A stretch of 64,000 nt of DNA, taken from positions 1 to 64,000 of the IMG/VR virus record IMGVR_UViG_3300050821_002540. One strand, given 5' to 3'. Made by a program: the position numbers and the translations under genes. Shown here piece by piece: positions 1 to 41,726 of the stretch. This DNA is from a virus. How positions within the stretch are numbered: the stretch's first letter is position 1; every line of letters begins with the position of its first letter. A model generated the notes under the pieces. That model was not told the origin of the DNA and searched no databases. It worked only from the letters and a program-made list of their open reading frames with translations.

Positions 1-372
1 GCCCCTACCCCCGAGCGGAGCGTTAACGACGCTCCGGCCGCGTCGAAGCCGACCGCGTCGAAGCCGACCGCGTCGAAGCCGACCGCGACGAAGCCGACTC
101 CCCGGAAGCGCGCGCCGAAGCCGGTCGCCGCTCCGTTTACCCCTTCTGAGCTAGCGGCGCGCGCTCTCGCCGTAGCGCCTCCCGCGTCCGCTATCGTCGG
201 CTACGTCGCGTACCTTAACCGCGTCGTAGGCGACGGGACGCTCTCCTTCCCTGACGGGGAGCCGGTCGGAAAGCTCTCGCCCCGCGAACTCCGCCTACTC
301 GCGCTCTCGATTAAGGGGTACGGCGCGTACCAGAAGTCGCCGGAGCGGCTCGCGGCTCGCGGACTCGTCTAG
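1..372 (+). CDS. 5'-truncated Ala/Pro/Lys-rich protein, paralog of the 22409 gene; almost free of TG/CA dinucleotides
   Basis: Frame 1 is open from base 1 to TAG 370-372 (APTPERS...ELRLLALSIKGYGAYQKSPERLAARGLV*). It shares RLLAL-x4-Y-x2-(Y/F)QKSPE-x2-AAR with the 22409 protein. Absent from the ORF track because no start lies in the window. Confidence 0.75.
   Translation, partial: APTPERSVNDAPAASKPTASKPTASKPTATKPTPRKRAPKPVAAPFTPSELAARALAVAPPASAIVGYVAYLNRVVGDGTLSFPDGEPVGKLSPRELRLLALSIKGYGAYQKSPERLAARGLV
40..99 (+). repeat. 15-bp tandem repeat GCGTCGAAGCCGACC x4 encoding ASKPT
   Basis: Three exact copies and one variant copy, read directly. Confidence 0.9.
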
Positions 373-380
373 GCCCTACC

Positions 381-418
381 GCGTAGGCCCTACGGCTAGC
401 TAGCCGTAGGGCCTACGC
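381..418. repeat. Perfect 38-bp palindrome (terminator, cruciform or end-processing site)
   Basis: GCGTAGGCCCTACGGCTAG followed by its exact reverse complement, just after the stop at 372. Confidence 0.85.
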
Positions 419-444
419 CCTTCGTACGGAGCGCGCGACGAGAG

Positions 445-830
445 CTGAGCCTGAGGCCCTGCCCCTCTGGGGTGGGGCCTCCTGGCTGCCCAGCCTCAGG
501 GCAGGCAGACAGCTGCCTGGGACAGCCAGGCAATTTTCAGACAATAATGTCTGTCTGTTTTCCCAGACAGGCAGACAGCCAGGCAGACAATTGCCACAGG
601 CAATTTTCAGTGGGCAGTGCCCAATGCCGCGAGTTGCTCTGTTATCCTGTCTTGAGCCAAACTTGAGTTTGAGCTCAAATTCTCTTGATCCAGTTTGCTA
701 GCGGGCTTGAGTTTTCTCCTGGCTATCTAGTTCTCTGGCAACCAGCCAAAGAACTCCAGTCTAGTTCTCCTGGCTATCTAGTTAGCCTGGAATTTGGAAC
801 CCAAATTCCATCTAGTTCTCCTGTTTTTGT
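445..830. repeat. Non-coding region with short repeats (CAGACA; TCTAGTTCTC; TTCTCCTGGCTATCTAGTT x2)
   Basis: Repeats read directly; only low-quality ORFs; hairpin GGAATTTGG/CCAAATTCC near 789-809. Confidence 0.6.
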
Positions 831-849
831 TAACAAAAAGGCGCATTTT

Positions 850-1296
850 TCATGCAAAAAGCAGGCAGAAAATTGTCTGTATTTTCTCGCATGTACGGAC
901 GCGCAGGAGTGCACATAAGCGCAGGTCACCAACATCAAGGTCATCACCAGCATCAGCAGGCACATCCAGCTGCGCAGCATCAAACACAACATGAGGGTCC
1001 AGCCCACTCACATCCCGGTACCTCTCATAGCTATACTCCTCACATGCAGCACGCAACTGTACAAGAAGCACAGTAATGTCCACACACGTCGGCTGTGCTA
1101 TCTCCCCGTGCATCTTCCTCTCAGCAGCCAGCAGCTTATCAAAGGCATCAATCATCCTTGCCTCCTCACGCGAGTACGGGCCACGCCTCAGGTTTGTCCT
1201 TGGCCCACGCTTCTTCCTCACCCTCCCCTGTACCACATCCATGTACGTCTCGCCCTCATCATACGCATCCGCACCAGCACCCGCACTAGCAGTCAT
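850..1296 (-). CDS. Hypothetical protein; likely real end at in-frame TTA 916-918
   Basis: ATG at 1296 overlaps the upstream TGA (ATGA). Acidic C-terminus ...DDLDVGDLR is followed by TTA and a junk-like tail. Confidence 0.55.
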   Translation of the reverse strand: MTASAGAGADAYDEGETYMDVVQGRVRKKRGPRTNLRRGPYSREEARMIDAFDKLLAAERKMHGEIAQPTCVDITVLLVQLRAACEEYSYERYRDVSGLDPHVVFDAAQLDVPADAGDDLDVGDLRLCALLRVRTCEKIQTIFCLLFA

Positions 1297-1445
1297 GTCC
1301 GAACCCTCATTGCAGCTACTTCCCATTCAAGCCGCTCATCCTCACTGAGCAGCTCCCACCTATTCCACACACGCTGTCCCACACGCCACTCCCTAGCACA
1401 CCACTCAGCGTACAGCTCATGTCCAGTCACTACATCTCCCGACAT
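1293..1445 (-). CDS. Small hypothetical phage protein (MSGDVVTGHELYAEW...)
   Basis: 50-aa ORF read manually, coupled by ATGA to the next gene. Confidence 0.55.
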   Translation of the reverse strand: MSGDVVTGHELYAEWCAREWRVGQRVWNRWELLSEDERLEWEVAAMRVRT

Positions 1446-1512
1446 ACCCTGCTCCATCTTTTTGCAACATACCTCACCTGCTGCCTAGGCCCCTACGGGG
1501 CCGATAGGCGAG

Positions 1513-1613
1513 CAGGGTAGGATCATCCTACCCTCAGGGTAACCAGGGTAGGTATAGTCGACTACACATACCCTGCCTACCCTCATCCTACCCTGCCCGC
1601 GACCAGGGTAGGT
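1513..1613. repeat. CAGGGTAGG/CCTACCCT iteron-like cluster; candidate replication origin
   Basis: About eight copies in both orientations within 100 bp, directly after the primase-helicase stop. Confidence 0.6.
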
Positions 1614-3643
1614 CACTTTTCCATAGCCTCCCACCCCTTTTCAGTGACAGTATGCCACGTTGTCTTGCCCCGTACAGGCTCCGTACGTGCAACGAAACCG
1701 GCGTCAATTGCAGCCTTTCGGATAGCCGCGCGGCGGTTCTTGTCGCCACCAATCAGGGCATCAAACTCAACGCCAGAGTACCTACCATCCTCTCCACCAT
1801 CACCCTTTAGTGCAAGGGCACGAAGCCCCTTCATTGCGTCAGGCACCACTCGCGGCCGTACAATGCCATCAGCAGACACCTCTACAACAAGCGAGCCTGG
1901 CTCCGTTCCAGACGAGGTACATGACAGGATTCCAGCTGCGCGGGTACCTGGCAGCTCACCACCAGAGCACCCCATTCGCACGGAACCAGGGCGGTCTTTT
2001 GTCAATGTAAGGTTGCTCCATCCAGAGACTCCTACACCGATTGGCTCGACATTCTCAACAAGATATGACGCACCATTCACCACGTTGAGCTTCATGACGC
2101 CACCCATTGCGTACCTGGAGCCACCTACCGAGGCAGCCTCTTTTGTCACATGGTCAGTGGCAATTGTACACACACCCCGGCCAAGCAGTGGGCGCACTAG
2201 GGCAGACCGGAACGCCGTTGCTGAGTCATTGTCCTTGACAGCCCAGCCGAACACCCCATACGCAGCAGTGACCCCATTGTGTATGACAATATCGGGGCAC
2301 CATGACACACACGCTGCCATGACATCCATAGCAGACCCTCGCGAGTCGGGTGTGGCAAACATGAACAGGTCCTCATCACCAAGCAGCGAGGCATCAAGTC
2401 CTGCGTTAAGGAGGCGGTTGCCACAGTCACCACCGTCACCCTCTTCCCAGTCAATCCATATGACTGACCGGCCCCGCGACAGCGATTCCTTCACTAGCCA
2501 CACAAGCAGCATGTCCTTGCCAGACTCTGTCTCACCATAGACAGTATGCTCCTTGCCAGCGTAGAACAGGCACTGTCCATCACCACGCTCACCATACACG
2601 GGCACGGCACGCGTGTACGTGCCATCGATGACGCCACTGAAGTTGAACCACACCGACGACTCGTCGTCACCCAGCTCACTACCATTGTCGGCATCACCAT
2701 CGGCACCACCCAGCTCTGAGAGCCTGGCTCCGGGAGTGTGACGCCAGCCACCCGTTGGGATGGCAGCACCAGCAAGGCCAGCACGGTCCCATGGGTCCGT
2801 GCTATCCCATGAGCGGAGCTGTCCACGGAGCACAGCAAGCTCAAGACAGTCAACAACCTCCTTGTCGCGCATGCCACGGTCATGAGCATCACGTGCCCAG
2901 GCAAATATGGCACCCCTCTGAGCACCAGAGCCAGCCGAGAGCACCTCTGACCACAGCCCACCAGCATCCGCCACCTCACTACCACTAGCCACCCCAGCAG
3001 CGGACGGGTGGGAGGCACGGTACATGGACAGGACCTCAGCGAAATGTCCTACAGGAGACAGCTGGCGGTTGCTGCCTACCCACTGGTAAGCACGGCCAGA
3101 AGGGTGCCGTGAGGGGGCAACGCCAATGAAGCCATTGGACTTGACCTGGCCACCTGGTATGTCACCCTGGCGTGGCCAGCCTGATGCCTCCAGCCCCCTG
3201 GCGTCATACAGGTGGTGCTCACCACCATCCCGGCCAGTGCGTGAGGAAACGTACTCTGGCTCATCAACATCCCACTGTTCCCATACAGATGGGTGGTCGA
3301 TGTCGCACACGAGCAGGCCTGAGCGCGGAGAGGTGATGAGCCCAACACGAGACCCGGCCCTCCACTCGTCAATTGACCGGTGAGACTCACGCTCCACAGT
3401 CGCGTATGACCAGCCAGCCTCATAACAGGGCATCTTGTTGCCATTGTATGAGCGCCATGGGATGGGCCAGAAGCCAGCGTCCAGGTACTCATGGGCGGCA
3501 GAGCGACAGTCAAGTCCAGAGACATCTGGCACAATGAGCGGGGGCTTTACGCCGCGCCCGCGCGGGGGTATACTCGGTGGCATAGGTGCCTCCTGAATGG
3601 TCATGGCAGCCTTTCTGGGGTAGTGGGAGTGGGGCCGTGGCAT
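1613..3643 (-). CDS. Bifunctional primase-polymerase (Prim-Pol) fused to a RecA/AAA-type helicase
   Basis: N-terminal AHEYLDAGFWPIP, LVCDID, TGRDGGEHHLY and APSRHPSG.AYQW motifs; C-terminal Walker A GETESGKD and a DH motif. Confidence 0.85.
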   Translation of the reverse strand: MPRPHSHYPRKAAMTIQEAPMPPSIPPRGRGVKPPLIVPDVSGLDCRSAAHEYLDAGFWPIPWRSYNGNKMPCYEAGWSYATVERESHRSIDEWRAGSRVGLITSPRSGLLVCDIDHPSVWEQWDVDEPEYVSSRTGRDGGEHHLYDARGLEASGWPRQGDIPGGQVKSNGFIGVAPSRHPSGRAYQWVGSNRQLSPVGHFAEVLSMYRASHPSAAGVASGSEVADAGGLWSEVLSAGSGAQRGAIFAWARDAHDRGMRDKEVVDCLELAVLRGQLRSWDSTDPWDRAGLAGAAIPTGGWRHTPGARLSELGGADGDADNGSELGDDESSVWFNFSGVIDGTYTRAVPVYGERGDGQCLFYAGKEHTVYGETESGKDMLLVWLVKESLSRGRSVIWIDWEEGDGGDCGNRLLNAGLDASLLGDEDLFMFATPDSRGSAMDVMAACVSWCPDIVIHNGVTAAYGVFGWAVKDNDSATAFRSALVRPLLGRGVCTIATDHVTKEAASVGGSRYAMGGVMKLNVVNGASYLVENVEPIGVGVSGWSNLTLTKDRPGSVRMGCSGGELPGTRAAGILSCTSSGTEPGSLVVEVSADGIVRPRVVPDAMKGLRALALKGDGGEDGRYSGVEFDALIGGDKNRRAAIRKAAIDAGFVARTEPVRGKTTWHTVTEKGWEAMEK

Positions 3644-3655
3644 GGCCCCACTGCC

Positions 3656-3868
3656 TTAACCATGTGCGGAGCGTGGCCGGGAACGGCTGATGTGGTACTG
3701 AAGCTCTGCTATGGAGCAGAAGTCAGCACCGCACTTGCAATGAGTAATGGTGCCTACACGCCTTGCATAAGCAAGCCTGTTGCTTGCGCTAATCATGTCC
3801 TTTGTCTCCTGGGACAGCTTGTGGCCACGGGGACGGCCACGGGGACGGCCAGTTGGCTTGTACGGCAT
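3656..3868 (-). CDS. Small DNA-binding protein (AT-hook-like GRPRGRP, NUMOD3-like SQETKDMIS, Cys/His finger)
   Basis: Motifs in the translation; GGGAGG RBS and an upstream promoter. Confidence 0.65.
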   Translation of the reverse strand: MPYKPTGRPRGRPRGHKLSQETKDMISASNRLAYARRVGTITHCKCGADFCSIAELQYHISRSRPRSAHG

Positions 3869-3897
3869 GATGCCTCCCGGTGAGAGGTGAGGGTTTA

Positions 3898-3926
3898 ATC
3901 CTACCCTACCCGCGAGCGCGCGTCTA
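3898..3926 (-). promoter_or_regulatory. Leftward promoter TAGACG-N17-TAGGAT
   Basis: Matches the repeated phage promoter consensus; precedes the 3868 and primase genes. Confidence 0.65.
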
Positions 3927-3945
3927 CCCCAGAAATCAGCAGGAC

Positions 3946-3974
3946 TTTACGCAGCCCCGGCGGCCGGGTAGGCT
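3946..3974 (+). promoter_or_regulatory. Rightward promoter TTTACG-N17-TAGGCT, divergent from the leftward one
   Basis: Same GGG-TAGGCT-AG -10 context as the other copies. Confidence 0.6.
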
Positions 3975-3980
3975 AGGCGT

Positions 3981-4100
3981 AGCCCGGCCGGGACTCGCCT
4001 CCACGGCTGGGCTGGGGCTGAGGGCCAGTACCCTTGCATAGCCAGCTCCCCCCAGCAGGCTAGCCTGACGGGAATACCCTCAGCCCCACCCTGGAGGCGA
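3981..4100 (+). ncRNA. Structured leader or sRNA with anti-RBS loop ACTCGCCTCC
   Basis: Stem AGCCCGGCCG/CGGCTGGGCT; second stem GGGGCTGAGGG/CCCTCAGCCCC; alternative pairing with TGGAGGCGA at 4092-4100. Confidence 0.45.
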
Positions 4101-4318
4101 AGGAGGCGACATGCAGTCATACAGCAATGGCGCGGGACCAGCGTTCCACAATGGCCCATCACTACAGTCACCAGACACGCACTGGCATGCCCTGGCATGT
4201 GGGCCGGTGGTGTTCCAGTGAGGTCACCACATCTTAATAACAGTGTACCGGGTATGACCAGGCTGGTACACAGGCTCCAGTACATCGCAGGATTCGCGAT
4301 TGGCTTTGGGGGTGCAGT

Positions 4319-4492
4319 ATGGGTGCTCAGCCTAACTCTCCACTGACAGTAAACCTTGCCCATGAGACCCTGGAATTGTGGATCTGTGGAATCTGCAAGG
4401 CAATTACAGCCAAAGAGGACAGGCAGTTCCACATTGACTGGCACGATGCCCTGGTTAACACGATGGCAATGGTGGCACATGGGAACCCCTGA
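4319..4492 (+). CDS. Small CxxC...HxxWH zinc-binding protein
   Basis: Manual translation ...WICGICKAITAKEDRQFHIDWHDAL... Confidence 0.5.
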   Translation: MGAQPNSPLTVNLAHETLELWICGICKAITAKEDRQFHIDWHDALVNTMAMVAHGNP

Positions 4493-4706
4493 CCCACCCT
4501 ACCCTCAGGATGAGCTGACAGGAGTGCTCAACAGTGTACTGCCGCCTGAGGTGCAGGGACGTGACCGTACCGAGTACGTAGCAGTAGGCATTGCACTGAA
4601 CAAGTTCTTTGCGATAAAATATGAGGACCTGACAATGGATGACCTTGACAAAATCCTGCGTGAGGTGTTCGACAAGGGGTACAACTGTCACAAGCTCGGG
4701 CAATGA
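4479..4706 (+). CDS. Hypothetical protein
   Basis: 3' part of ORF 4356-4706; ATGA-coupled to the next gene. Confidence 0.55.
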   Translation: MGTPDPPYPQDELTGVLNSVLPPEVQGRDRTEYVAVGIALNKFFAIKYEDLTMDDLDKILREVFDKGYNCHKLGQ

Positions 4707-5248
4707 CAAGGGTGACTGGCATTGGCTTTGAGCTGATGGGAGGAAGTAGGCTGGTGAGGTTCCGGACAACATTCAGCGCACCTTACTGGATGGCTGACCA
4801 CCCAGGTGAGCGCACAACATTTGCTGTAGCTATGTGGAGACAGATGGCTGTAGATGCAGGTCTTGAGCCACAAGGACAGCCGGAATACACCTACACCTAT
4901 GATGTTGACTCAATCATGATTGCGGCTTCTGGTGAAGTTGAGCCTACAACACAGACAATTGTAAACAGCATACTGCCTCCTGACAATGCATGGACTTTTG
5001 ACTTGCCGGCGGTTATGCTGGATGGTCAGGAAGTACAATGGCACTACGATAATGAGCCGCTTGTACCTGAGCTGCCGATGCTCCAGGATGCCCAGGGCAG
5101 CTTTACTGGGTTCTTTGACCAGCCATTTGAGACAGTAGTAAGGACACTGTTCGGCATCCCGGAGGCAGCATATGAGGATTTTGATGATGGCTGGGAATAT
5201 GGTAATGACGCTGCTCATTCAGAGAACTACGGAGACAAGAAGCTGTGA
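4703..5248 (+). CDS. Hypothetical acidic protein
   Basis: 181-aa ORF in a coupled operon. Confidence 0.65.
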   Translation: MTRVTGIGFELMGGSRLVRFRTTFSAPYWMADHPGERTTFAVAMWRQMAVDAGLEPQGQPEYTYTYDVDSIMIAASGEVEPTTQTIVNSILPPDNAWTFDLPAVMLDGQEVQWHYDNEPLVPELPMLQDAQGSFTGFFDQPFETVVRTLFGIPEAAYEDFDDGWEYGNDAAHSENYGDKKL

Positions 5249-5341
5249 CGATTGAAGGGAGCTATGTGTCTGCTGTATGGGACATTGCCGGATTTGCGCT
5301 GCTGATTGTAGTCATTGCCATTTACCGGAAGGGACGCAAGC

Positions 5342-5863
5342 GTGACGACTCCTGAGCTCCACCTGATTGGTGTTGATCCTGGCGGCACAACAGGAGTGAC
5401 CAGGCTGACTGTGCCAAGGCTCTCCATCTTTGGCGATGAACCACCACAGATTATTGAGTGGGACTACTTTGCCCTCAATGGCCCGGAGGCCAAGCAGGCA
5501 ACAGAACTCGCGAGGTATACAAGGGAAACGCAGAGCCTCTCATACAAGATTGGGCCTGCAATCGTGAGTGAGCTGTGGACACAGGACCCACGGTTTAAGA
5601 GCACGGACCCTGAGGCACTCAGCCCAGCAAGAATTAACGCAATGCTTGAGCTACTGCTTTACCAGAACCTGCTTGGTGATGCAACGCTTACGTTCCAGCC
5701 GAGGGGCATACGCCTGTCCATTGACGAGGACAAGCTGCGCAAGATGCGTATGTATGTCAAGCACAAGGACATACGTGCATCAACTCAGCATGCTGTTATG
5801 GGGCTGCGAAGGGCACGACAGAGCCTTGAGTTCGCAACAAAACTATGGCCGGAGGCAGTATGA
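5342..5863 (+). CDS. RuvC-like Holliday junction resolvase
   Basis: LIGVDPGGTTG N-terminal motif, central Glu, C-terminal HKDIRASTQHA helix. Confidence 0.75.
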   Translation: MTTPELHLIGVDPGGTTGVTRLTVPRLSIFGDEPPQIIEWDYFALNGPEAKQATELARYTRETQSLSYKIGPAIVSELWTQDPRFKSTDPEALSPARINAMLELLLYQNLLGDATLTFQPRGIRLSIDEDKLRKMRMYVKHKDIRASTQHAVMGLRRARQSLEFATKLWPEAV

Positions 5864-16022: not shown

Positions 16023-16102
16023 AGGGGTAGCGCCCCGGCCGGGGGAATGATAGACTCCTGAAAAGTGAGGAACCCTGGCCGGGGCCAGTGCTAGGAGGCG
16101 AA

Positions 16103-16564
16103 ATGAAGTGTGGTAGCTGCAGGGACAGCCACAAGACTGTCGATGAGGTAAGAGACTGCTACAAGCAGAAGAACTTCGTGCCGCTCACGACTGTGCACGA
16201 TGGCAAGAACGGCCAGTATGAGCTGCTCCAGAAGCTCCTGGCTGAGCGCGACATGGCTCCGCTCCCTCCGTACGATCACGTCGCGAACACAATAAGCAAG
16301 AGCGACGCGGGTGAGGCAATCGCTCTCCTCATCGACAACGTGCCCAAGTCCGACGGCAAGTGCGATGACGACTGGGAGGGTGAGTTATGTCTGAGGGCAC
16401 TCTCAGGGAAAGGTACCTGGCCAGCCAGACAAAATACAACCGCAGCTACAAAGGGGCGGCTCGGTACAAGCGGTATGAGGCAAAGCATCCCGAGCGTGCT
16501 CAGGCATGGAGCGAGCTCATGCAGATCAAGGCGAGGCGGCGGTTATGCTTTATGTCGCATTTGA
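16103..16564 (+). CDS. Hypothetical protein (CGSC..H..VDEVRDC); likely real end at TTA 16385-16387
   Basis: GGAGGCGA RBS; sequence after TTA overlaps the next gene out of frame. Confidence 0.65.
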   Translation: MKCGSCRDSHKTVDEVRDCYKQKNFVPLTTVHDGKNGQYELLQKLLAERDMAPLPPYDHVANTISKSDAGEAIALLIDNVPKSDGKCDDDWEGELCLRALSGKGTWPARQNTTAATKGRLGTSGMRQSIPSVLRHGASSCRSRRGGGYALCRI

Positions 16565-16575
16565 ATGCGTCCTGA
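16387..16575 (+). CDS. Small basic protein (YNRSYKG...RYEAKHPER); likely real end at TTA 16543-16545
   Basis: GGAGGG RBS; its ATG overlaps the upstream TTA. Confidence 0.6.
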   Translation: MSEGTLRERYLASQTKYNRSYKGAARYKRYEAKHPERAQAWSELMQIKARRRLCFMSHLNAS

Positions 16576-16682
16576 TCATTATGACGGCGAATGAGCTTTG
16601 TGCGCCCTCATACATGGCCGAGTACACTGCAGCCAAGTTCGGTGTTGCAATGATACTCATCATGATCAGGGAGATGCAATGA
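16545..16682 (+). CDS. Small membrane peptide (MLYVAFECVLII...)
   Basis: ATG overlaps the upstream TTA; TGA overlaps the next ATG. Confidence 0.5.
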   Translation: MLYVAFECVLIIMTANELCAPSYMAEYTAAKFGVAMILIMIREMQ

Positions 16683-16906
16683 CAGTCGATGAAGCCATTG
16701 AGGAAATTACTCGTGCATCAGTAATCTGTACCGATGTAGACCTATGGCGTAGTGAGCTTGAAACTATCCTCAAGGCCGTCCGCTCGCGCGCAGTTCTCGA
16801 TGCACAGGCAAGCATGGTTGCCGCATTTACCTGTCCGGAACATCACGGCAGGCACGAAATTCCTACCGATCAGGTAGGGAATATCCAAGGACCCGTTTCA
16901 CCTTGA
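16679..16906 (+). CDS. Hypothetical protein
   Basis: ATGA coupling; GGGAG RBS. Confidence 0.6.
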   Translation: MTVDEAIEEITRASVICTDVDLWRSELETILKAVRSRAVLDAQASMVAAFTCPEHHGRHEIPTDQVGNIQGPVSP

Positions 16907-16916
16907 AGGGAATGCC

Positions 16917-17762
16917 ATGGAAACCACTCAGACAGTCCTGCTCAGCCATCTCCACCCGAACCCAGCCAACCCCCGCGTGGAAGCTGGGGATGTAACTGAT
17001 CTTGCCCTTTCAATCAGGGAACAGGGCATAGTACATGACATCCTTGTCCGTCCCTCTCCTGAATTTGGAGTGGGCCACTTCGTAATTGAGGATGGATTCC
17101 GGCGCTGGGTGGCGGCCGAGGGTAACGCGAGGATGGGGCTAGGTCCTGAGACAGTTCAGGTACGCATCCGGTCGCTGAAGCCAGGCGAGAATTATGCCGT
17201 GCGCGAGGTTGTTACATCACTCGTAACAACAATCCATCGTACTGACCTCAGGGCAATGGAGAAGGCACACGCATTCGAGGCCCTGATGAGGGAGACCGGC
17301 AAGAACCAGTCGGAAGTTGCCAGGATGATTGGCGTGAATTCCAGTACGGTAGGTCGGTACCTTTCACTTCTGGAGCTAGCGCCACAGGCACAGAAACGAG
17401 TGTCCGATGGAACACTCAGCGTAGAGGACGCAATAGATGCGGTTATTAAGCATCGAGCAAAGGCAAGGAAGGACAAGGGACAGGCTGCAGTTGACCCTGG
17501 CTGGGAGCCACTCTACCTCGCGAAGACGCACCCTCTTGCAAAGAAGGCTCGAACAATGTGCGATGCCAGGGAGCATAATAATCGCCGTCGCCTAGATGGC
17601 GTAGCCTGCGGGCAGTGCTTCGAGACTGTTATACGTCAGGACCAGAGCACAGTAGACAGGATGGAGTACAATGAGGCTTTCAAGAATGCCGGACTCAGCG
17701 TCCCATTCACCGCTCCAATCTTCCTGACCGGCGAGGATGCCAGCAAGAATGGACAGCCATGA
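16917..17762 (+). CDS. ParB/Srx-domain protein with HTH
   Basis: LHPNPANPR, LALSIREQGI, IEDGFRRWVAA; HTH NQSEVARMIGVNSSTVGRYL. Confidence 0.85.
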   Translation: METTQTVLLSHLHPNPANPRVEAGDVTDLALSIREQGIVHDILVRPSPEFGVGHFVIEDGFRRWVAAEGNARMGLGPETVQVRIRSLKPGENYAVREVVTSLVTTIHRTDLRAMEKAHAFEALMRETGKNQSEVARMIGVNSSTVGRYLSLLELAPQAQKRVSDGTLSVEDAIDAVIKHRAKARKDKGQAAVDPGWEPLYLAKTHPLAKKARTMCDAREHNNRRRLDGVACGQCFETVIRQDQSTVDRMEYNEAFKNAGLSVPFTAPIFLTGEDASKNGQP

Positions 17763-17889
17763 GGCCGCACAGGTTTAATCCTGACCAGCGCGTCTCGACT
17801 GGTGAGATTTGCGTGTGCGGAGGGTCAAGAAACTACCGGGCACATCAGCCTTGGTGGTGGCTCATTCTGAACAGGAAGAAGTGGTGGAG

Positions 17890-18696
17890 ATGAAGGACAA
17901 CGTATACATCGTGACGCGGGACCGGCTCGACAACCTGGAGAAGATCATACCACGCTGGCTGGAACAGTACTTCTATGTCACACTGGTAATCGAACATTCC
18001 GAGTACATGAAGCACGATGCCCTCATCCGTGGCATGGGCGTTTATGATGATATTGCAATAATCAGCCCAAAGGCGGAAAATAAGGGCATCGGTCATGCCC
18101 GGAAGTATGCAGTTACAAATGCCTGCCTTCGCGGGCTGCGGTCATTTATTATGTCTGATGATGATCTCCGTCCGCACAAGGACTCGGTGATGGCCGACCT
18201 GGTAAAAGAAGCTGAAAAGCCAAATGTCCTTGGCATCGGGGCGACAAGGCCGCTACATGACAGGTTCTCGCACAACATGACGAGGGACCGGGATGATGTC
18301 ATTATATGTCCTGGTGGCTGGGGCATGCAGGTCTTTGCGCTGAACGTCAGGAACACAGTCGATGTCGGCAACTTCAACCCTCGCCTTGACTGCTGGGGCG
18401 AGGATCACGAGCTGATGCGTGACGGGATTGTTTGTGGCTTCCCCTGGCTCGTACACTGTGGAGTGAAGTGTGAGCCTATCGGGGTGCGCTATGATCCTGG
18501 TGGCCTACACTCGTACATCGGCAAGGGTAACAGGTCAGAGCGCGAGTTGGAGTGTCGTAAGCTCATCTATGAGCGCTGGGGGAATTACGTAAGCAAGCCT
18601 GACAAGAGGCCGCGTACAGCATGGGCCAGAATGATGGATGAATACATTCCTAACTGGCGTAGCAAGTCAGCAATCCACGGCGGTGAATGGCAGTAG
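17890..18696 (+). CDS. GT-A glycosyltransferase, TAGT/GREB1/base-J glucosyltransferase-like (DNA base modification)
   Basis: VYIVTRDR, GIGHARKYA, MSDDD, GEDHEL, PGGL and C-terminal ERWG motifs. Confidence 0.7.
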   Translation: MKDNVYIVTRDRLDNLEKIIPRWLEQYFYVTLVIEHSEYMKHDALIRGMGVYDDIAIISPKAENKGIGHARKYAVTNACLRGLRSFIMSDDDLRPHKDSVMADLVKEAEKPNVLGIGATRPLHDRFSHNMTRDRDDVIICPGGWGMQVFALNVRNTVDVGNFNPRLDCWGEDHELMRDGIVCGFPWLVHCGVKCEPIGVRYDPGGLHSYIGKGNRSERELECRKLIYERWGNYVSKPDKRPRTAWARMMDEYIPNWRSKSAIHGGEWQ

Positions 18697-21954: not shown

Positions 21955-22322
21955 TGTCAGATAGTGACGATAAGTTCCGCGAGTGGTTTGGTGCCAATGA
22001 GGGGAAACTCAGGCTTCCATGGAACACAGACTCACTCCGTGCTGCCTGGGAGGCCGGCAGGAAGTCGAGGGATAAGGAGATTGAATTTCTCCGAACGGTC
22101 ACAGAACAGGGATGGGAATGACCTGGGAGACTGCTAATCCATGGGCCATTGTCGATATCGAGGCTCGGCCGCAGGTAGTTGTTACCAGGTATGAGAGCAA
22201 GGCAATGGCAACATGGTACCTCGGCTACCTACTTGCGCACGGGGCTGCGTCTACGCAGGCGAAACTCAGGCGCGGCGGGTACGGCATCGAGGAAAATTCT
22301 CGGAAGATGATGGCTGAAAAGG

Positions 22323-22351
22323 TAGCGTCAGCTCGCCGGATGGACTATACT
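22323..22351 (+). promoter_or_regulatory. Promoter TAGCGT-N17-TATACT
   Basis: Consensus spacing; lies inside ORF 22112 upstream of ATG 22409. Confidence 0.6.
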
Positions 22352-22408
22352 AAGGGTAACGCTAAGCCACGAACCACCAACGTAGAAAACAAGGGAAAGG
22401 TCACAACC

Positions 22409-22861
22409 ATGCCACCTCGCGGACGTAAGGGTGCTGCTGTTCCGGTCGAGCCAGAGGAAGTGCTTGAGGAAGAGAATGGTGCCGGCTTGTTCGATCATCA
22501 CCTGACCAAGGACCTCAGCCCTACGATGTCAACCTACGCGGACTGGTTCCACGCCAACGTAGCGGACATCGACCAGCTAGGCAAGGATGACCCGGCTCGA
22601 CTGCTTGCCCTAGGCAGCACGCTGTACCCGCACTTCCAGAAGTCCCCGGAGAACCAGGCTGCCCGTGCAGAGCGAAAGGCTGCGCGTGCCGTCGCTGTCG
22701 AGCCTGAGCCCGAGCCTGAGCCTGAGCCTGTTGCTCAGCCTGCGCGCCGGGGCCGTCCCTCCACCAAGGCTGCGGCTGCGGCACCGGCTGCTGCTCCTGC
22801 AGCCAAGGCCCCCGCTCGTCGGCGCGGTGCCGCCCCGGCTGCGGCCGAGGCACCCTACTAG
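22409..22861 (+). CDS. Ala/Pro/Arg-rich probable nucleic-acid-binding protein; paralog of gene 1-372
   Basis: Own promoter and AAGGGAAAGG RBS; in frame with an upstream ORF from 22118. Confidence 0.75.
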   Translation: MPPRGRKGAAVPVEPEEVLEEENGAGLFDHHLTKDLSPTMSTYADWFHANVADIDQLGKDDPARLLALGSTLYPHFQKSPENQAARAERKAARAVAVEPEPEPEPEPVAQPARRGRPSTKAAAAAPAAAPAAKAPARRRGAAPAAAEAPY

Positions 22862-27319: not shown

Positions 27320-27502
27320 GTGACTTACTTTGATGCTAAAGTTGAGCCTACAGATCACAGTAAGATCGGCGGGCACACCCTGATAATACATCATTACAAT
27401 CCGCAGCAAGGCCAGGCCTGGGTTGACCTCACAGACCACCAGCTCACTATGATAGCCCTGGCAATCCTAGGCCACCTAGCATCAGTCAAGGAGTTACGGT
27501 GA
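27320..27502 (+). CDS. Hypothetical protein; in-frame TTA at 27494, one codon before TGA
   Basis: 60-aa ORF coupled to the flavoprotein. Confidence 0.5.
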   Translation: MTYFDAKVEPTDHSKIGGHTLIIHHYNPQQGQAWVDLTDHQLTMIALAILGHLASVKELR

Positions 27503-28308
27503 AGGTAATCGTCATTGGGTGCGGACCCGCAGGACTCGCGGCTGCTCACGCTGCTGTAGGGCTGGGTGCAGAGGTACGTGTAATAGCACCAAAGAAGATG
27601 ACTCCGCAGAACGGTCCGGTAACGATACAGAATCCAATCCCTGGCATTTCAGTAGACCATCCTGACGGTTACATTCGCCAGCTAGTGGTCGGTGGCTCAA
27701 TACTTGACTACAGACTGAAATTGTATGGTGATGTTAACGTCAACATCAACGGTAACATCATGCGTCCCGGCTACGACGCATGGCAGGTCAGGGCTGCCTA
27801 CTACAAGATGTGGGACCTGTACTCCTGGATGGTCGAAGATGGAATGGTAGCGCCCGGAGACATTCAATGGCTAGTTCGTGATAGTGACCTGGTAGTCTGC
27901 TCAGCTCCAGCAAAAAGCCTGTGCTACCAGGATTGCGACAAGCTACTTGCCCGCGATCAGGAATGTCATGAGTTCCGGAGCGTGCCTATCGCCCTCAAGT
28001 TCAGCACAAGCTATCCGAACCAGCCGGAAAATACCGTAATATACAATGCCCGAAAGGATGAGCCATGGGTGAGGAGTAGCCTCATTTTTGGTGTGGGGGT
28101 AACCGACTACAAGGTTGAGGACTGTCCTAACCCTGACCTGATAATCCAGAAGCCACTAGGCACCGACTGTGACTGTCACCCAAAGGTGCTTCGGGTAGGC
28201 CGGTATGGCAAGTGGCACAACTTGTCATGGATCGACAGCGCATACTCAGAAACTCGCGAGTCTTTGTTGTCAATGATGCACCAGCAAGAATGGAGTTCTG
28301 TTGTCTAG
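27499..28308 (+). CDS. FAD-dependent oxidoreductase or mutase-like flavoprotein
   Basis: VIVIGCGPAGLAAA Rossmann motif; C-terminal VGRYGKW. Confidence 0.8.
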   Translation: MKVIVIGCGPAGLAAAHAAVGLGAEVRVIAPKKMTPQNGPVTIQNPIPGISVDHPDGYIRQLVVGGSILDYRLKLYGDVNVNINGNIMRPGYDAWQVRAAYYKMWDLYSWMVEDGMVAPGDIQWLVRDSDLVVCSAPAKSLCYQDCDKLLARDQECHEFRSVPIALKFSTSYPNQPENTVIYNARKDEPWVRSSLIFGVGVTDYKVEDCPNPDLIIQKPLGTDCDCHPKVLRVGRYGKWHNLSWIDSAYSETRESLLSMMHQQEWSSVV

Positions 28309-28474
28309 CCTGTATGAGGTAGAGACAATCGCAACAACAACGGAAATTGTCGAGGCTGAGTCAGAGAAGGAGGCAATAGACAAGGTAGAGGCTCGCGGCC
28401 TGACGGTAACAGGAGCCAGGAAGCTAGAGCCGCAGGACCCTGATACGCTATAATCGAGGTAGGAGGGAATCGTA

Positions 28475-29683
28475 ATGGCAACTCAGAAGCCCGATGGTAG
28501 CTGGGACATCAGCGATGAGGAAGCTCGCCAGATCAACGAAATCTCAGAAGCCGAGTCACAGCAACGTCACGATCAGTACGTGAGGAACAACATGGACGAT
28601 CCGCTCGACCTTGTATTCAGGTCGATAGTACACAACCACACGCGTAGTGATGGATGTGGCGTAAACTGCCCAATGTACCTGAAATTCAATCACGATAAGA
28701 CTCACGTCACGGGGTGCGGTCCTGGCTGTGTGTCATGGTTCTACCTATCGCCTCAAGTTGAAGAGGCAACCTTCCTGTCAGAACCTCCAGAAGAGCAGAC
28801 CAGGGAGGTGGTCAGGTGGGCGGATGAGGCAATGTTCGTTGCCAAGCCGCTTACACCAGACACAGATGGACAGCTTAGGCCGGAAGTTACAATCATTCAT
28901 ATGACGGCCGACCCGCTCCGGGTAATGGCGGCCGCAGCACAGATGTATGAGGGCGATCCCGTCTATAGCCCAAATGACATACCTCGCCGCCTAGCTGAAG
29001 AATGGCTCAGGAAGACTCTTGCCCATAATTATCCGGCACCTCTTGAATTTGTCGATATCCACTTCATGATCAGGAACGTTACCAGGGCATTTACACACCA
29101 GATGGTCCGACAGAGGCAGGCGGTGTACATTCAGGAATCGCTACGCTTCGCCGTCAAGGAGAATGCCGCAATGGAGGTTGTAATGCCTCCTAGCATCTCA
29201 CATCTGTCAATCGATGATCCACGGCGTGTAGAATGGGAGAAGGCAGTTAGGGAGATTGGTGACTCATACAATGCACTTATCAATACGGGTATTCCGGCCG
29301 AGGATGCCCGTGGCCTACTCCCTACCAACATTGGGACCAGTCTCCATTACAAGACAAACCTGCGCATGCTCCGGGAGCACTCAGGGAACCGGCTGTGCTC
29401 CCAGGCCCAGCACGAGTGGAAGCTAGTATGGGGCGAGTTCATCAAGGCCATACTCAGCTACGGCCCGGCCAGTCAGAGGTGGCAGCAGAAGCTCATCGCG
29501 AGTATGTTCAAGCCGATCTGCTACCAGACTGGCAAGTGTGAGTACCCGCTCCCAATGGGACGGTACTGCGCCATCCGTGACATGGTAGATGCCCACCACT
29601 ACGCCGGTGACACGCCTGAGTCATGGACTGACATCAACCCGCTCGTCCTCCTGCATCCAGAGGTGGCTCGTCGTGCCCAGTGA
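28475..29683 (+). CDS. thyX: ThyX-like flavin-dependent thymidylate synthase with N-terminal extension
   Basis: VTRAFTHQMVRQR...QESLRF, EDARGLLP and RLCSQAQHEW motifs. Confidence 0.8.
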   Translation: MATQKPDGSWDISDEEARQINEISEAESQQRHDQYVRNNMDDPLDLVFRSIVHNHTRSDGCGVNCPMYLKFNHDKTHVTGCGPGCVSWFYLSPQVEEATFLSEPPEEQTREVVRWADEAMFVAKPLTPDTDGQLRPEVTIIHMTADPLRVMAAAAQMYEGDPVYSPNDIPRRLAEEWLRKTLAHNYPAPLEFVDIHFMIRNVTRAFTHQMVRQRQAVYIQESLRFAVKENAAMEVVMPPSISHLSIDDPRRVEWEKAVREIGDSYNALINTGIPAEDARGLLPTNIGTSLHYKTNLRMLREHSGNRLCSQAQHEWKLVWGEFIKAILSYGPASQRWQQKLIASMFKPICYQTGKCEYPLPMGRYCAIRDMVDAHHYAGDTPESWTDINPLVLLHPEVARRAQ

Positions 29684-39471: not shown

Positions 39472-39756
39472 GGCCGGGGCTGTAACCCCGAAGTAGTCGT
39501 CATCGATGGCGACAACGGCCCCGGTGCCCTGCCACTGACAAGTGACCAGCTGGGTATCGGGGCCTGCCCATCCCGTGGTATCAATGTCGTAATGGTATGC
39601 TCCGGGCCCATCATTAGTTGGTCCTACAATTGTATTGACTGAACCGGCTCCAGCCCGGTACTTGAATGTTATTGTTGTTGGGTTAGTCGGCACTCCAGCC
39701 GTGTTAACAAATGCGGCCGACGACCTAACCATTGAGCCGCTCGTGTACAGGTTCAT
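39466..39756 (-). CDS. Small Ig-like virion protein
   Basis: Beta-rich; G.YHYDIDTTG motif; last gene of the late operon. Confidence 0.65.
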   Translation of the reverse strand: MNLYTSGSMVRSSAAFVNTAGVPTNPTTITFKYRAGAGSVNTIVGPTNDGPGAYHYDIDTTGWAGPDTQLVTCQWQGTGAVVAIDDDYFGVTAPAL

Positions 39757-41726
39757 TCCGAGTTCCTTATCGTCACCGGGCTGATGTTCCTATTGCTGAC
39801 CGATACAGACGCAGATGAATTGCTCACTTCGACTGATCCTGCTAGTGACTGAGTTACCGTCACCTGTCCAGGGAACTGCGATGCCCCGAGTGTAAAGACA
39901 AATACGTCAGCCCCAGCTCCGCTATCCAGGAACGCCACCGGCATGCTGTATGTCAGCAGTTCAGTGCCTGAGCCACTATCAGACAGAACTACTGGGATGT
40001 TGAATAGCAGGGACTCGGTACTGACACCAGAGTCAGTCAGGGCAACCAGTGAGGACAGGCCAAGTACGTCTGTCCCAGCACCAGAGTCAGCTAGCAGTAC
40101 AGAGCTAGTGATCTTCAGGCTATCGGTGCCTGTGCCAGAGTCAGCTAGGACAATTGGTGTTACCGACAGTACTGAGAGTGTGTCAGTACCAGAGCCAGAG
40201 TCAGTGAGCGCAACTGGCTGGGCAGATACAATTGTAAGTACGTCAGTGCCAGTGCCGGAGTCCGCTAGCCCTGGGATCATGCCGAGCGCGTCGGTACCCG
40301 TTCCGGCGTCCGCGAACGGTACCCCCGCCAGGACGCCTAGAACGTCCGTAGCCGCGCCGGAATCCCCTAGGGAGGGGAGGATACCTAGCGCGTCCGTTCC
40401 CGTCCCTACGTCGCTTATAGAGACGCCTACGGCTACTGCGAAAACGTCCGTCCCCGCCCCGGTATCGGACATGGTGACCGGGGTAACACTGAGCACGGCC
40501 AGGCTGTCAGTACCAGTACCTGAGTCAGTGAGGCCAGGCATAACACCGAGCGTATCGGTACCAGCACCAGTATCCGTCAGGGCCGTCGGCTGGACAACAG
40601 CCAGCACATCTGTGCCAGCCCCAGAATCAGCTAGTGACACTACAGAGGTGACCGCAAATGTCTCTGTGCCAGAGCCAGAGTCGGTGAGCGGCGTCGGCTG
40701 AACAATCGCGAGGGCTTCTGTGCCTGACCCGGAGTCAGTAAGTGCTACTGGTGTGACTGACAGCACAGCCAGGGAGTCGGTGCCTGTACCCGAGTCTGTT
40801 AGCCCTGGCATGACGCCCAGGGCATCTGTCCCAGAACCAGAGTCCGTAAGCGCTGTCGGCTGGGTTATAGCCAGGACTTCTGTCCCGGTACCGGAGTCAG
40901 CTAGCGGTACTGTTGAGGTTACTGCCAGTGTCTCGGTACCGGATCCAGAGTCGGAAAGCTGTATCGCCGAGGAAGCAGCCGTTACCTGAACCGGAAGGAA
41001 CTGCTGGTGATGGAACTTTTCAGTCCATGTCCTACCAGGCATTACCTGCTGTGGCAACTGGATTGTTACAGGACCACTAGATAGCTTGAACGCTACAAGT
41101 AGCAGGCCCCATGTAGCGGCGCCAGAGATGGCCCATGACAGGGACTCAGTCCCACCCGTACTATTGCCATAGGCAGTAGCTAGCTGGGCAGCACTATTTG
41201 AACCTGAGTTCTTTAGTGGTGTGTATCCAGTCTCTGTATATGTAGTGGAGTAACCGGCATCACCAACAGAGGCAAGCAGGAACTCATTTGCTGCCGTAGA
41301 GCTGTATGCTGTACCGCCAGTTATGGTAGCCGGGGAGGCAGTACCAGTATTGTGTCCGGGAGACCCATCAAGCATTGACGTTGTATTACCAGCAAGCAGT
41401 CCTGACACTTCAAGCAGTACCGGGACCGACCCAAAGTTTGTCCCATTAGTGCAAGTTATTAGTGGTCCAGTTCCGACATCACCTGATGGGGTATCCATTG
41501 CCCAGATCGAGATACCGCCCTGAGCCGACTGGTAGGCAAGCAGCCCTACCTGCGTAAAGCTATTGAGCGCTGCATCCTTAACTGACGTTGGGGCGGTAGA
41601 GCTGCTTGAGTCCAGGGACACTATGGCAATAAGCTTGGACCCGGATGTAAGCGTGCCATATGTAGCCGTACAGTTTCCCGATCCCTGTACTGTACCCAGG
41701 ACAGACTGGAGGACCGTGTAGGCCAT
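39753..41726 (-). CDS. Virion-associated repeat protein with about 20 (L)xDSGxGT(D/E) repeats
   Basis: 16-20 aa repeats in the translation; Ser/Thr/Gly-rich. Confidence 0.75.
   Translation of the reverse strand: MAYTVLQSVLGTVQGSGNCTATYGTLTSGSKLIAIVSLDSSSSTAPTSVKDAALNSFTQVGLLAYQSAQGGISIWAMDTPSGDVGTGPLITCTNGTNFGSVPVLLEVSGLLAGNTTSMLDGSPGHNTGTASPATITGGTAYSSTAANEFLLASVGDAGYSTTYTETGYTPLKNSGSNSAAQLATAYGNSTGGTESLSWAISGAATWGLLLVAFKLSSGPVTIQLPQQVMPGRTWTEKFHHQQFLPVQVTAASSAIQLSDSGSGTETLAVTSTVPLADSGTGTEVLAITQPTALTDSGSGTDALGVMPGLTDSGTGTDSLAVLSVTPVALTDSGSGTEALAIVQPTPLTDSGSGTETFAVTSVVSLADSGAGTDVLAVVQPTALTDTGAGTDTLGVMPGLTDSGTGTDSLAVLSVTPVTMSDTGAGTDVFAVAVGVSISDVGTGTDALGILPSLGDSGAATDVLGVLAGVPFADAGTGTDALGMIPGLADSGTGTDVLTIVSAQPVALTDSGSGTDTLSVLSVTPIVLADSGTGTDSLKITSSVLLADSGAGTDVLGLSSLVALTDSGVSTESLLFNIPVVLSDSGSGTELLTYSMPVAFLDSGAGADVFVFTLGASQFPGQVTVTQSLAGSVEVSNSSASVSVSNRNISPVTIRNSE

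Follow-up and report, generated by a model that had tools for sequence, protein, structure and literature searches.

The first-step-transfer DNA of phage T5, the early region of T7, and the leading regions of plasmids are motif-poor, and mRNAs without ACA resist the MazF endoribonuclease. In the virion DNA of the Pbunavirus phages F8 and 14-1, a sugar-derivatised thymidine replaces about a quarter of T, and this DNA resists exactly those restriction enzymes that have TG in their site (PMC12191111). Phage T-dioxygenases act after replication and in a sequence context, with the ParB-dependent 5mYOX176 preferring NTG, and of the contigs with such genes 31% also have glycosyltransferases and 27% ParB (PMC13229309). 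The genus Wifcevirus, a distant relative of Pbunavirus, is restriction-resistant (PMC11990801). The present analysis concerns a 64,000-nt stretch of viral DNA, positions 1 to 64,000 of the IMG/VR virus record IMGVR_UViG_3300050821_002540, hereafter the window, and in particular an island of 847 bp at its start, which carries a single gene and is nearly devoid of the dinucleotides TG and CA. Full-text literature searches found no published description of such TG/CA-purged islands.

The window covers the opening 64 kb of one virus contig of 73,693 bp, from a phage known only from metagenomes and here of soil source. A preliminary description, made from the letters alone, had noted that bases 1-445 are almost without TG and CA. 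Exactly three such steps are present, at 147 (TG), 252 (TG), and 331 (CA), giving odds ratios of 0.04 for CA, 0.10 for TG, 1.53 for CG, and 2.39 for TA, whereas every other 400-bp interval of the 64-kb stretch holds 38-81 of them. The last 97 bp of the contig equal its first 97 bp, so that the circle measures 73,596 bp, and the depleted zone resumes at the far end of the contig; the island therefore crosses the join. It comprises genome positions 73195-73596 and window positions 1-445, is sharp at both edges, and contains five TG/CA steps (73438, 73440, 147, 252, and 331) against about 127 predicted from the density of the genome. A scan for low-density segments gave the island a score of 845 and the runner-up 176. 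The avoided unit is the TG/CA dinucleotide in all contexts, and GC content is 0.71 in bases 1-445 and 0.70 for the island, compared with about 0.55 elsewhere. In a second soil metagenome from a different study, positions 75-414 and three flanking pieces were assembled with zero differences, and this identity in independent material excludes an assembly artefact.

The gene in the island encodes a protein of 139 amino acids with no Met, Trp, Cys, or His and a single Gln. The preliminary description had reported the missing four residues for the visible part of the protein, and the statement extends to its full length. Its reading of the codons also stands: Leu is written CTC, CTA, or CTT and Val GTC, GTT, or GTA, in a genome where CTG makes up 26% of Leu and GTG 20% of Val codons, while the CA at 331 belongs to a Gln codon, CAG. 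A shuffling null had been proposed as a check on the depletion, and two were run on the full 139-codon gene, neither of which reproduces it. With the protein kept and codons drawn from genome usage, 47.3±5.0 TG/CA steps are expected (minimum 28 in 20,000), while permutation of the gene's own synonymous codons, which tests codon junctions only, yields 18.0±3.0 (minimum 6); the gene has 3. None of the 28 codons that precede an A-initial codon ends in C, and T ends only 2 of the 54 that precede a G-initial codon. The non-coding DNA of the island is purged as well, with two steps in the 354 bp upstream of the gene and none in the 73 bp after it. Since the depletion extends to the junctions between codons and to non-coding DNA, a cause at the level of tRNA or codons is excluded, and avoidance of codons read by cleaved tRNAs was ruled out on the same grounds. 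A CpG island or gain of CpG as the driver was likewise ruled out, since the DNA upstream of the gene has a CG odds ratio of merely 1.09, alongside 0.05 for TG/CA and 2.99 for TA.

TG and CA are lost alike in the island gene (two and one left), which fits a reader of double-stranded DNA. TG and CA are one duplex step read from opposite strands; with both of them lost, what is read would be the duplex TG:CA step, and the purge implies that such a reader exists in infected cells. It is highly probable that purifying selection on double-stranded DNA keeps this native, conserved island nearly TG:CA-free. Under the purge the protein has given up Met, Trp, Cys, and His and kept a single Gln, and the gene has lost its ATG.

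The purge spans the whole of a transcription unit, including its non-coding control DNA: promoter, leader hairpin, ribosome-binding site, ATC start, the 139-codon gene, and a hairpin terminator together make the island one complete unit. Its parts and immediate borders are as follows.

Genome 73195-73437: GC-rich upstream DNA, 243 bp, with short direct and inverted repeats.
After genome 73437 and before the promoter: AT-rich stretch with the island's only non-coding TGs, ACTGTGTAG.
Genome 73462-73491: promoter TAGGTT-N18-TAGGCT, phage-type, of the genome's own family.
Between promoter and ribosome-binding site: leader hairpin.
Four nucleotides before ATC: ribosome-binding site AAGGAGGCGAG.
Genome 73549-73551 (L004 9549-9551), 48 nt before window base 1: predicted start codon ATC.
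Window 1-372, plus strand: 3' 372 nt of the island gene, an open frame with a TAG stop at 370-372.
Window 34-108, plus strand: four to five tandem 15-bp repeats encoding (A/T)SKPT of the Lys/Pro/Ala-rich tail.
Window 331-333, plus strand: CAG, the gene's sole CA, encoding the family-invariant Gln of GAYQxSP.
Window 381-418, plus strand: terminator hairpin of the island gene, a perfect palindrome of 38 bp without TG or CA (19/19 arms, -37.4 kcal/mol, z -5.0).
Window 445/446, no strand: right edge of the island, with TG/CA back every 4-8 bp from 446.
Window 453-481, no strand: second strong hairpin, just outside the island and containing TG (-34.1 kcal/mol).
Window 446-850, no strand: non-coding DNA with abundant TG/CA, little CG, and the iteron-like repeats CAGGCAGACAGC, TTCTCCTGGCTATCTAGTT, and CAGGCAATTTTCAG.

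ATG, GTG, and TTG are all impossible in the island frame because each contains TG. In two homologues, L006 and L008, the gene begins GGAGGCGAG-N4-ATG, with the same spacing as AAGGAGGCGAG-N4-ATC here, and in a third, L007, the spacer is N3. The N-terminus IETR aligns with MSETQT of the homologues, their Q being R here. By this alignment, ATC would be the start codon, at the place that ATG takes in the relatives. In the island region, Rfam and tRNA scans returned no match, and a scan of the island for consensus sigma-70 promoters found none.

Relatives were sought among 1.8 billion representative proteins. Five homologues (P0001-P0005, 142-187 amino acids) have the same architecture and no internal Met, Trp, Cys, or His, and their Gln is nearly confined to the invariant GAYQxSP position; these five are known by protein only, so that their amino-acid alphabet serves as a proxy for the purge. 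Across homologues the protein domain is intact, with a conservation of 41-57% identity. Four further relatives are known with their DNA.

L009, syntenic relative (portal 75%, TerL 64% amino-acid identity): homologous gene starting with ATG, TG/CA count 9 (null 36.1±4.3); flanks at odds ratios of 1.0-1.6.
L008, more distant: odds ratio 0.35 upstream and 0.51 coding; flanks 1.3.
L007, more distant: odds ratio 0.25 upstream (with a 214-bp run without any) and 0.82 coding; flanks 1.13.
L006, more distant: odds ratio 0.68 upstream and 0.76 coding; flanks 1.09.

In L009 the cassette lies at the same place as here, upstream of a leftward terminase operon, and the next gene is depleted too (17 TG/CA against a null of 34.1±4.1). 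The proteins of L006-L009 do use Trp, Met, and Gln. An internal control for the alphabet is provided by a paralogue in the same genome with the same C-terminal domain (hhalign probability 89.6%, E 1.9e-6):

Window 22112-22861, plus strand: paralogue of the island protein with a full alphabet (Met, Trp, His, and Gln).

As both this paralogue and L006-L009 use a normal alphabet, the fold itself does not impose the restricted alphabet. The cassette is purged to differing degrees as a lineage-specific trait, most strongly in the control region and almost completely in this phage. In L007 (1-250) and L009 (6260-6350), the DNA directly before the homologous cassette was also seen to carry arrays of TTAGC-N3-GCTAA palindromes and a common CGTTACCGTTTCGTTA motif; going by their sequence, they look like operator sites. 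Elsewhere, no DNA match to the phage was found in the cultured-phage database, no close relative of its PrimPol protein in IMG/VR, and no match in initial two-sequence scans of metagenome and genome collections.

One explanation at the level of RNA is that a transcript without UG and CA escapes one or more endoribonucleases, as ACA-less mRNAs do in the case of MazF. In favour of it, the purge does stop at the transcription terminator, and in L009 it begins near the -10 element. However, the loss of both UG and CA requires two specificities on one strand, and the purge is just as strong over about 300 bp ahead of the promoter. An RNA-level cause would need this stretch to be transcribed, and no promoter is recognisable before it. 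In L007 and L008, moreover, purging is stronger in the control DNA upstream than within the coding sequence. Taken together, these points make an RNA-level cause very improbable.

A second, smaller purged patch lies far from the island.

Window 40254-40469, minus strand: purged patch of 216 bp with 5 TG/CA, in repeats of a 657-amino-acid tail-fibre-like gene (39753-41726, minus strand).

Its 72 codons at 40251-40466 contain 6 TG/CA against a null of 29.5 (z -6.0), while elsewhere in the gene the counts equal or exceed those expected; purging is thus not confined to an early cassette. The position of the patch inside a structural gene is one of two observations in favour of a local mutational process, such as context hypermutation or biased mismatch repair, that turns TG/CA into CG or TA. 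The other is arithmetic: if about 60 TG/CA in every 400 bp became CG, GC would go from 0.55 to 0.70 and the number of CG from about 22 to about 80, near the observed values. Yet mutation alone would hardly leave the domain intact at its degree of conservation, with CAG kept for the invariant Gln, nor place the edges of the island at the ends of a transcription unit. The change from ATG to ATC requires a transversion and the synonymous swaps include transversions (CTC and GTC), the upstream DNA has gained TA rather than CG, and the graded purge in relatives does not fit a one-off hypermutation. A mutational origin is accordingly considered quite improbable. Hypermutation of the RIP or deaminase type, in which one-directional transitions lower GC and destroy coding capacity, does not fit, since GC rises to 0.70 and both the frame and the conserved domain are intact.

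The island belongs to this genome in its signals as well as in its place. Its promoter is one of about twelve family sites in the genome, whose consensus is TAGCTT or TAGACT, N17-18, and (cgg)TAGGCT, followed by a GC hairpin, GGAGGCGA, and ATG.

Window 3967, 6409, 8316, 10341, 11253, 13361, 16015, 18715, 37856, and 38579, plus strand: other promoters of the family.
Genome 73084, minus strand: a further promoter of the family.

Outside the island there are 14 TG/CA-free runs of at least 40 bp, against 2.65±1.5 expected, mostly at family promoters. The view that these promoters are footprints free of TG/CA throughout was nevertheless rejected, as TG or CA directly follows the -35 element in most of them. 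The eight most avoided 6-mer palindromes genome-wide are CCCGGG, CTCGAG, GCCGGC, ACCGGT, GGGCCC, CCGCGG, GTCGAC, and GAGCTC; outside the island, CCCGGG occurs 0 times against 31 expected, CTCGAG 1 against 19, CCGCGG 2 against 14, and ACCGGT 7 against 28. The island holds no copy of the eight, with about 8.7 expected. A native family of promoters and ribosome-binding sites and the same avoidance of sites indicate that the island has shared the evolutionary pressures on the remaining phage genome. Its high GC content, its sharp edges, and the contig join inside it might suggest foreign DNA recently acquired, or an artefact. These shared signals, the cassette of L009 in the same place, and the identical assembly from the second study make that barely credible, and we know of no genome that lacks TG/CA.

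What, then, would read the TG:CA step? The preliminary description had proposed that the phage modifies a base in this context. Thymine hypermodification in a TG context, which the cassette must escape, is the best candidate, with some other TG/CA-reading factor next, although we hold this assignment at somewhat less than even confidence. The target of the factor would be T within TG in duplex DNA, and the factor might be a thymine hypermodification that the phage itself introduces after replication, by oxidation and glycosylation as in Pbunavirus and in the pathways of 5mYOX, ParB, and glycosyltransferase. The cassette would have to remain unmarked, perhaps because proteins must bind and transcribe it on a marked incoming genome, or perhaps because it lies within a terminal repeat that is copied late. 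Several genes bear on this proposal.

Window 16917-17762, plus strand: ParB-like protein with ParB_N and HTH_ParB domains (E 4e-12).
Window 17809-18696, plus strand: candidate DNA glycosyltransferase, a weak match (TET-associated glycosyltransferase E 3.7e-4, phrog_842 E 4.1e-5).
Window 27499-29683, plus strand: flavoprotein (phrog_8720), then a 402-amino-acid ThyX-like protein.

The ParB-like gene directly adjoins the weak glycosyltransferase match, and a DUF4406 gene is also present in the genome. Three short overlapping reading frames were observed upstream of the ParB-like gene, at 16088-16906. None of the eight most avoided 6-mer palindromes contains TG or CA, which fits protection of TG-containing sites.

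A number of observations weigh against thymine hypermodification as the cause. The match to TET-associated glycosyltransferases falls below the Pfam curated cut-off, and the ParB-like protein has a helix-turn-helix domain, unlike the published partners of 5mYOX. No TET/JBP dioxygenase was detected in six frames of the whole contig (PF12851, no match at E<=10), a model that divergent members of the dioxygenase family escape (PMC13229309), and no C5-methyltransferase was found in six frames of the contig. Pbunavirus F8, which offers the best evidence for modification at TG, is without a purged gene; its one TG/CA dip is explained by amino-acid composition, with 76 observed and 76.2 expected. Most of the roughly eleven other family promoters have TG or CA directly after the -35 element. 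Among 4-mer palindromes, the most under-represented are CATG (0.71) and TGCA (0.73), which is unexpected if TG sites are protected, so that the palindromes are ambiguous as a test of such protection, the 6-mers fitting and the 4-mers not. Finally, the purged patch within the late tail-fibre-like gene is not explained by a role in entering or early DNA, and would need an extra assumption; it may, for example, have been brought in by recombination or serve as a landing site without the mark. For the reading as a whole, in which selection keeps the island TG:CA-poor and the cause is the phage's own TG-context thymine hypermodification, our support is tentative and falls short of an even balance.

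The preliminary description had further suggested that the island gene is the first to be expressed and is kept free of modification so that host RNA polymerase can read it from incoming DNA. As far as the letters indicate, nothing marks the gene as first-expressed, and its promoter is of the common family. The sequencing runs listed as holding the sequence include no RNA run. Host RNA polymerase transcribes the fully modified DNA of T4 and SPO1. Read depth gives a weak hint of something particular about the island. In the Logan unitig covering 58-410, word depth is 23.3 in run X1 against 8.4 in the flank (2.8-fold), and 4.64 against about 3.05 in X2 (1.5-fold). With the whole island at 23.3, a 4872-nt contig that takes in its left 469 nt should average 9.8, and the mean found there is nearly that, 9.62, although per-contig depths are a poor measure. 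The excess might come from a terminal repeat some 850 bp long, from unmarked DNA that sequences better, or from other genomes that share the island. The 97-bp overlap, a direct terminal repeat according to IMG/VR, stops within the 15-bp tandem repeats and for that reason looks like an effect of the assembler.

A cultured phage bears both on thymine hypermodification and on the remaining alternative. In the Escherichia coli phage ECML-117 (Wifcevirus, NC_025441), a purged block extends over about 6.6-8.3 kb, covering gp16-gp19, with normal flanks; TG/CA counts against the null are 8 and 37.9 for gp17, 10 and 33.4 for gp18, and 13 and 30.2 for gp19 (z -5.4 to -7.4). As a purged block in a restriction-resistant distant relative of Pbunavirus, it counts in favour of a TG-context thymine mark. 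An island of this kind in an unrelated phage is also compatible with some other host or phage factor that reads TG/CA on DNA, such as a nuclease, glycosylase, deaminase, or silencer, in the face of which the cassette must survive or stay active; it might, for example, encode a counter-measure needed even while the remaining genome is attacked. This explanation shares all the evidence for selection on DNA and needs no modification genes, which are weak here. On the other hand, the remaining 72 kb is rich in TG/CA (odds ratios 1.2-1.7) and would not be saved by an exempt stretch of 847 bp, and our literature searches gave no TG/CA-specific nuclease or defence system. To our knowledge, none with plain TG/CA dinucleotide specificity exists. 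Such a factor is therefore judged unlikely, if deserving of attention.

The function of the cassette protein can be approached from its layout and its neighbourhood. The protein has a Lys/Pro/Ala-rich tail and a conserved helical C-terminal domain. Pfam and PHROGs searches returned no family, a profile search of the PDB gave merely a low-complexity match to histone tails (E 0.23), and Foldseek against the PDB found no match at E<=0.001. AlphaFold models reach a mean pLDDT (predicted local distance difference test) of 60-63, with about 70-76 in the helical C-terminal domain, and the ESM Atlas leads only to winged-helix and Rep-like clusters with scores below 0.9. Beyond the island, the DNA at 446-850 carries 60 TG/CA per 400 bp and only 11 CG, together with several families of direct and inverted repeats. 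Lying beside the PrimPol-helicase gene, it is a possible origin or operator array, and the cassette protein may be a DNA-binding factor for these repeats. The hairpin at 453-481 probably terminates the PrimPol operon, which converges on the island from the minus strand.

The genes beside the island, at 850-5863, have the highest TG/CA odds ratios of the genome (1.4-1.7) and the lowest for CG (0.41-0.70), and thus represent the opposite compositional extreme to the island. Strand-specific avoidance in the neighbouring genes was considered and rejected, as the asymmetry of CA and TG at 600-2700 tracks base skew and both odds ratios exceed 1. Genes for a PrimPol-helicase, a DnaE-type polymerase, an SNF2 helicase, an NlpC/P60 lysin, a Terminase_3 protein, and a portal were recognised in the genome. 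Judged by its TAnnnT -10 elements, its GGAGG ribosome-binding sites, and the sites that it avoids, the phage probably infects a high-GC Gram-positive bacterium. TTA is nearly unused (0.00 of Leu codons), as is usual for high-GC phages.

Local avoidance of motifs in phages is known for restriction sites, and what distinguishes the present case is that a dinucleotide has been purged at the price of ATG and five amino acids. If the reader is a TG-context thymine mark, such cassettes would predict, from sequence, which uncultured phages carry the mark and in which context, and they would point to a function intolerant of it. A broader proposal, that many unrelated phages mark their genomes at TG and each keep one unmarkable "blank" transcription unit, seems to us doubtful, and we are equally sceptical that the blank cassette is a general module for entry, switching, or a terminal repeat that needs mark-free contacts or copying. 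Were this device real, the presence of a cassette would predict the modification context from sequence alone.

Set against known systems, the island shares features with each while matching none fully. Like the T5, T7, and plasmid leading regions, it is a short, self-contained segment with its own promoter, and its composition too may be shaped by what meets the DNA first. Those regions avoid restriction sites of 4-8 bp and keep ATG and all amino acids, whereas the island avoids a dinucleotide. Ordinary avoidance of restriction sites in general concerns units of 4-8 bp that are usually palindromic, and in the island such avoidance is additional. With ACA-less mRNAs it has in common that a short motif is stripped from a whole gene for expression under a sequence-specific activity. 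That protection operates on RNA, on a single strand, and through a three-base motif, while the island loses both complementary forms and does so in apparently untranscribed DNA as well.

The comparison with Pbunavirus F8 and 14-1 and with 5mYOX176 is closer in what is read, since their factor reads the same dinucleotide on duplex phage DNA after replication; F8 differs from this phage in being without a purged cassette. Pathways of the 5mYOX type bring together glycosyltransferase and ParB-like genes, which are neighbours here, the glycosyltransferase by a weak match, and they include a dioxygenase, of which none is detectable in this phage. ECML-117 resembles the island in having a stretch of small genes depleted at the synonymous level, with CG and TA raised. 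It departs from it in a depletion of 3-5-fold, compared with about 25-fold in the island, and in keeping its ATG starts, and it is an unrelated myovirus of a Gram-negative host. This parallel block in a cultured Wifcevirus, a genus represented in the BASEL collection, makes the question testable at the bench.

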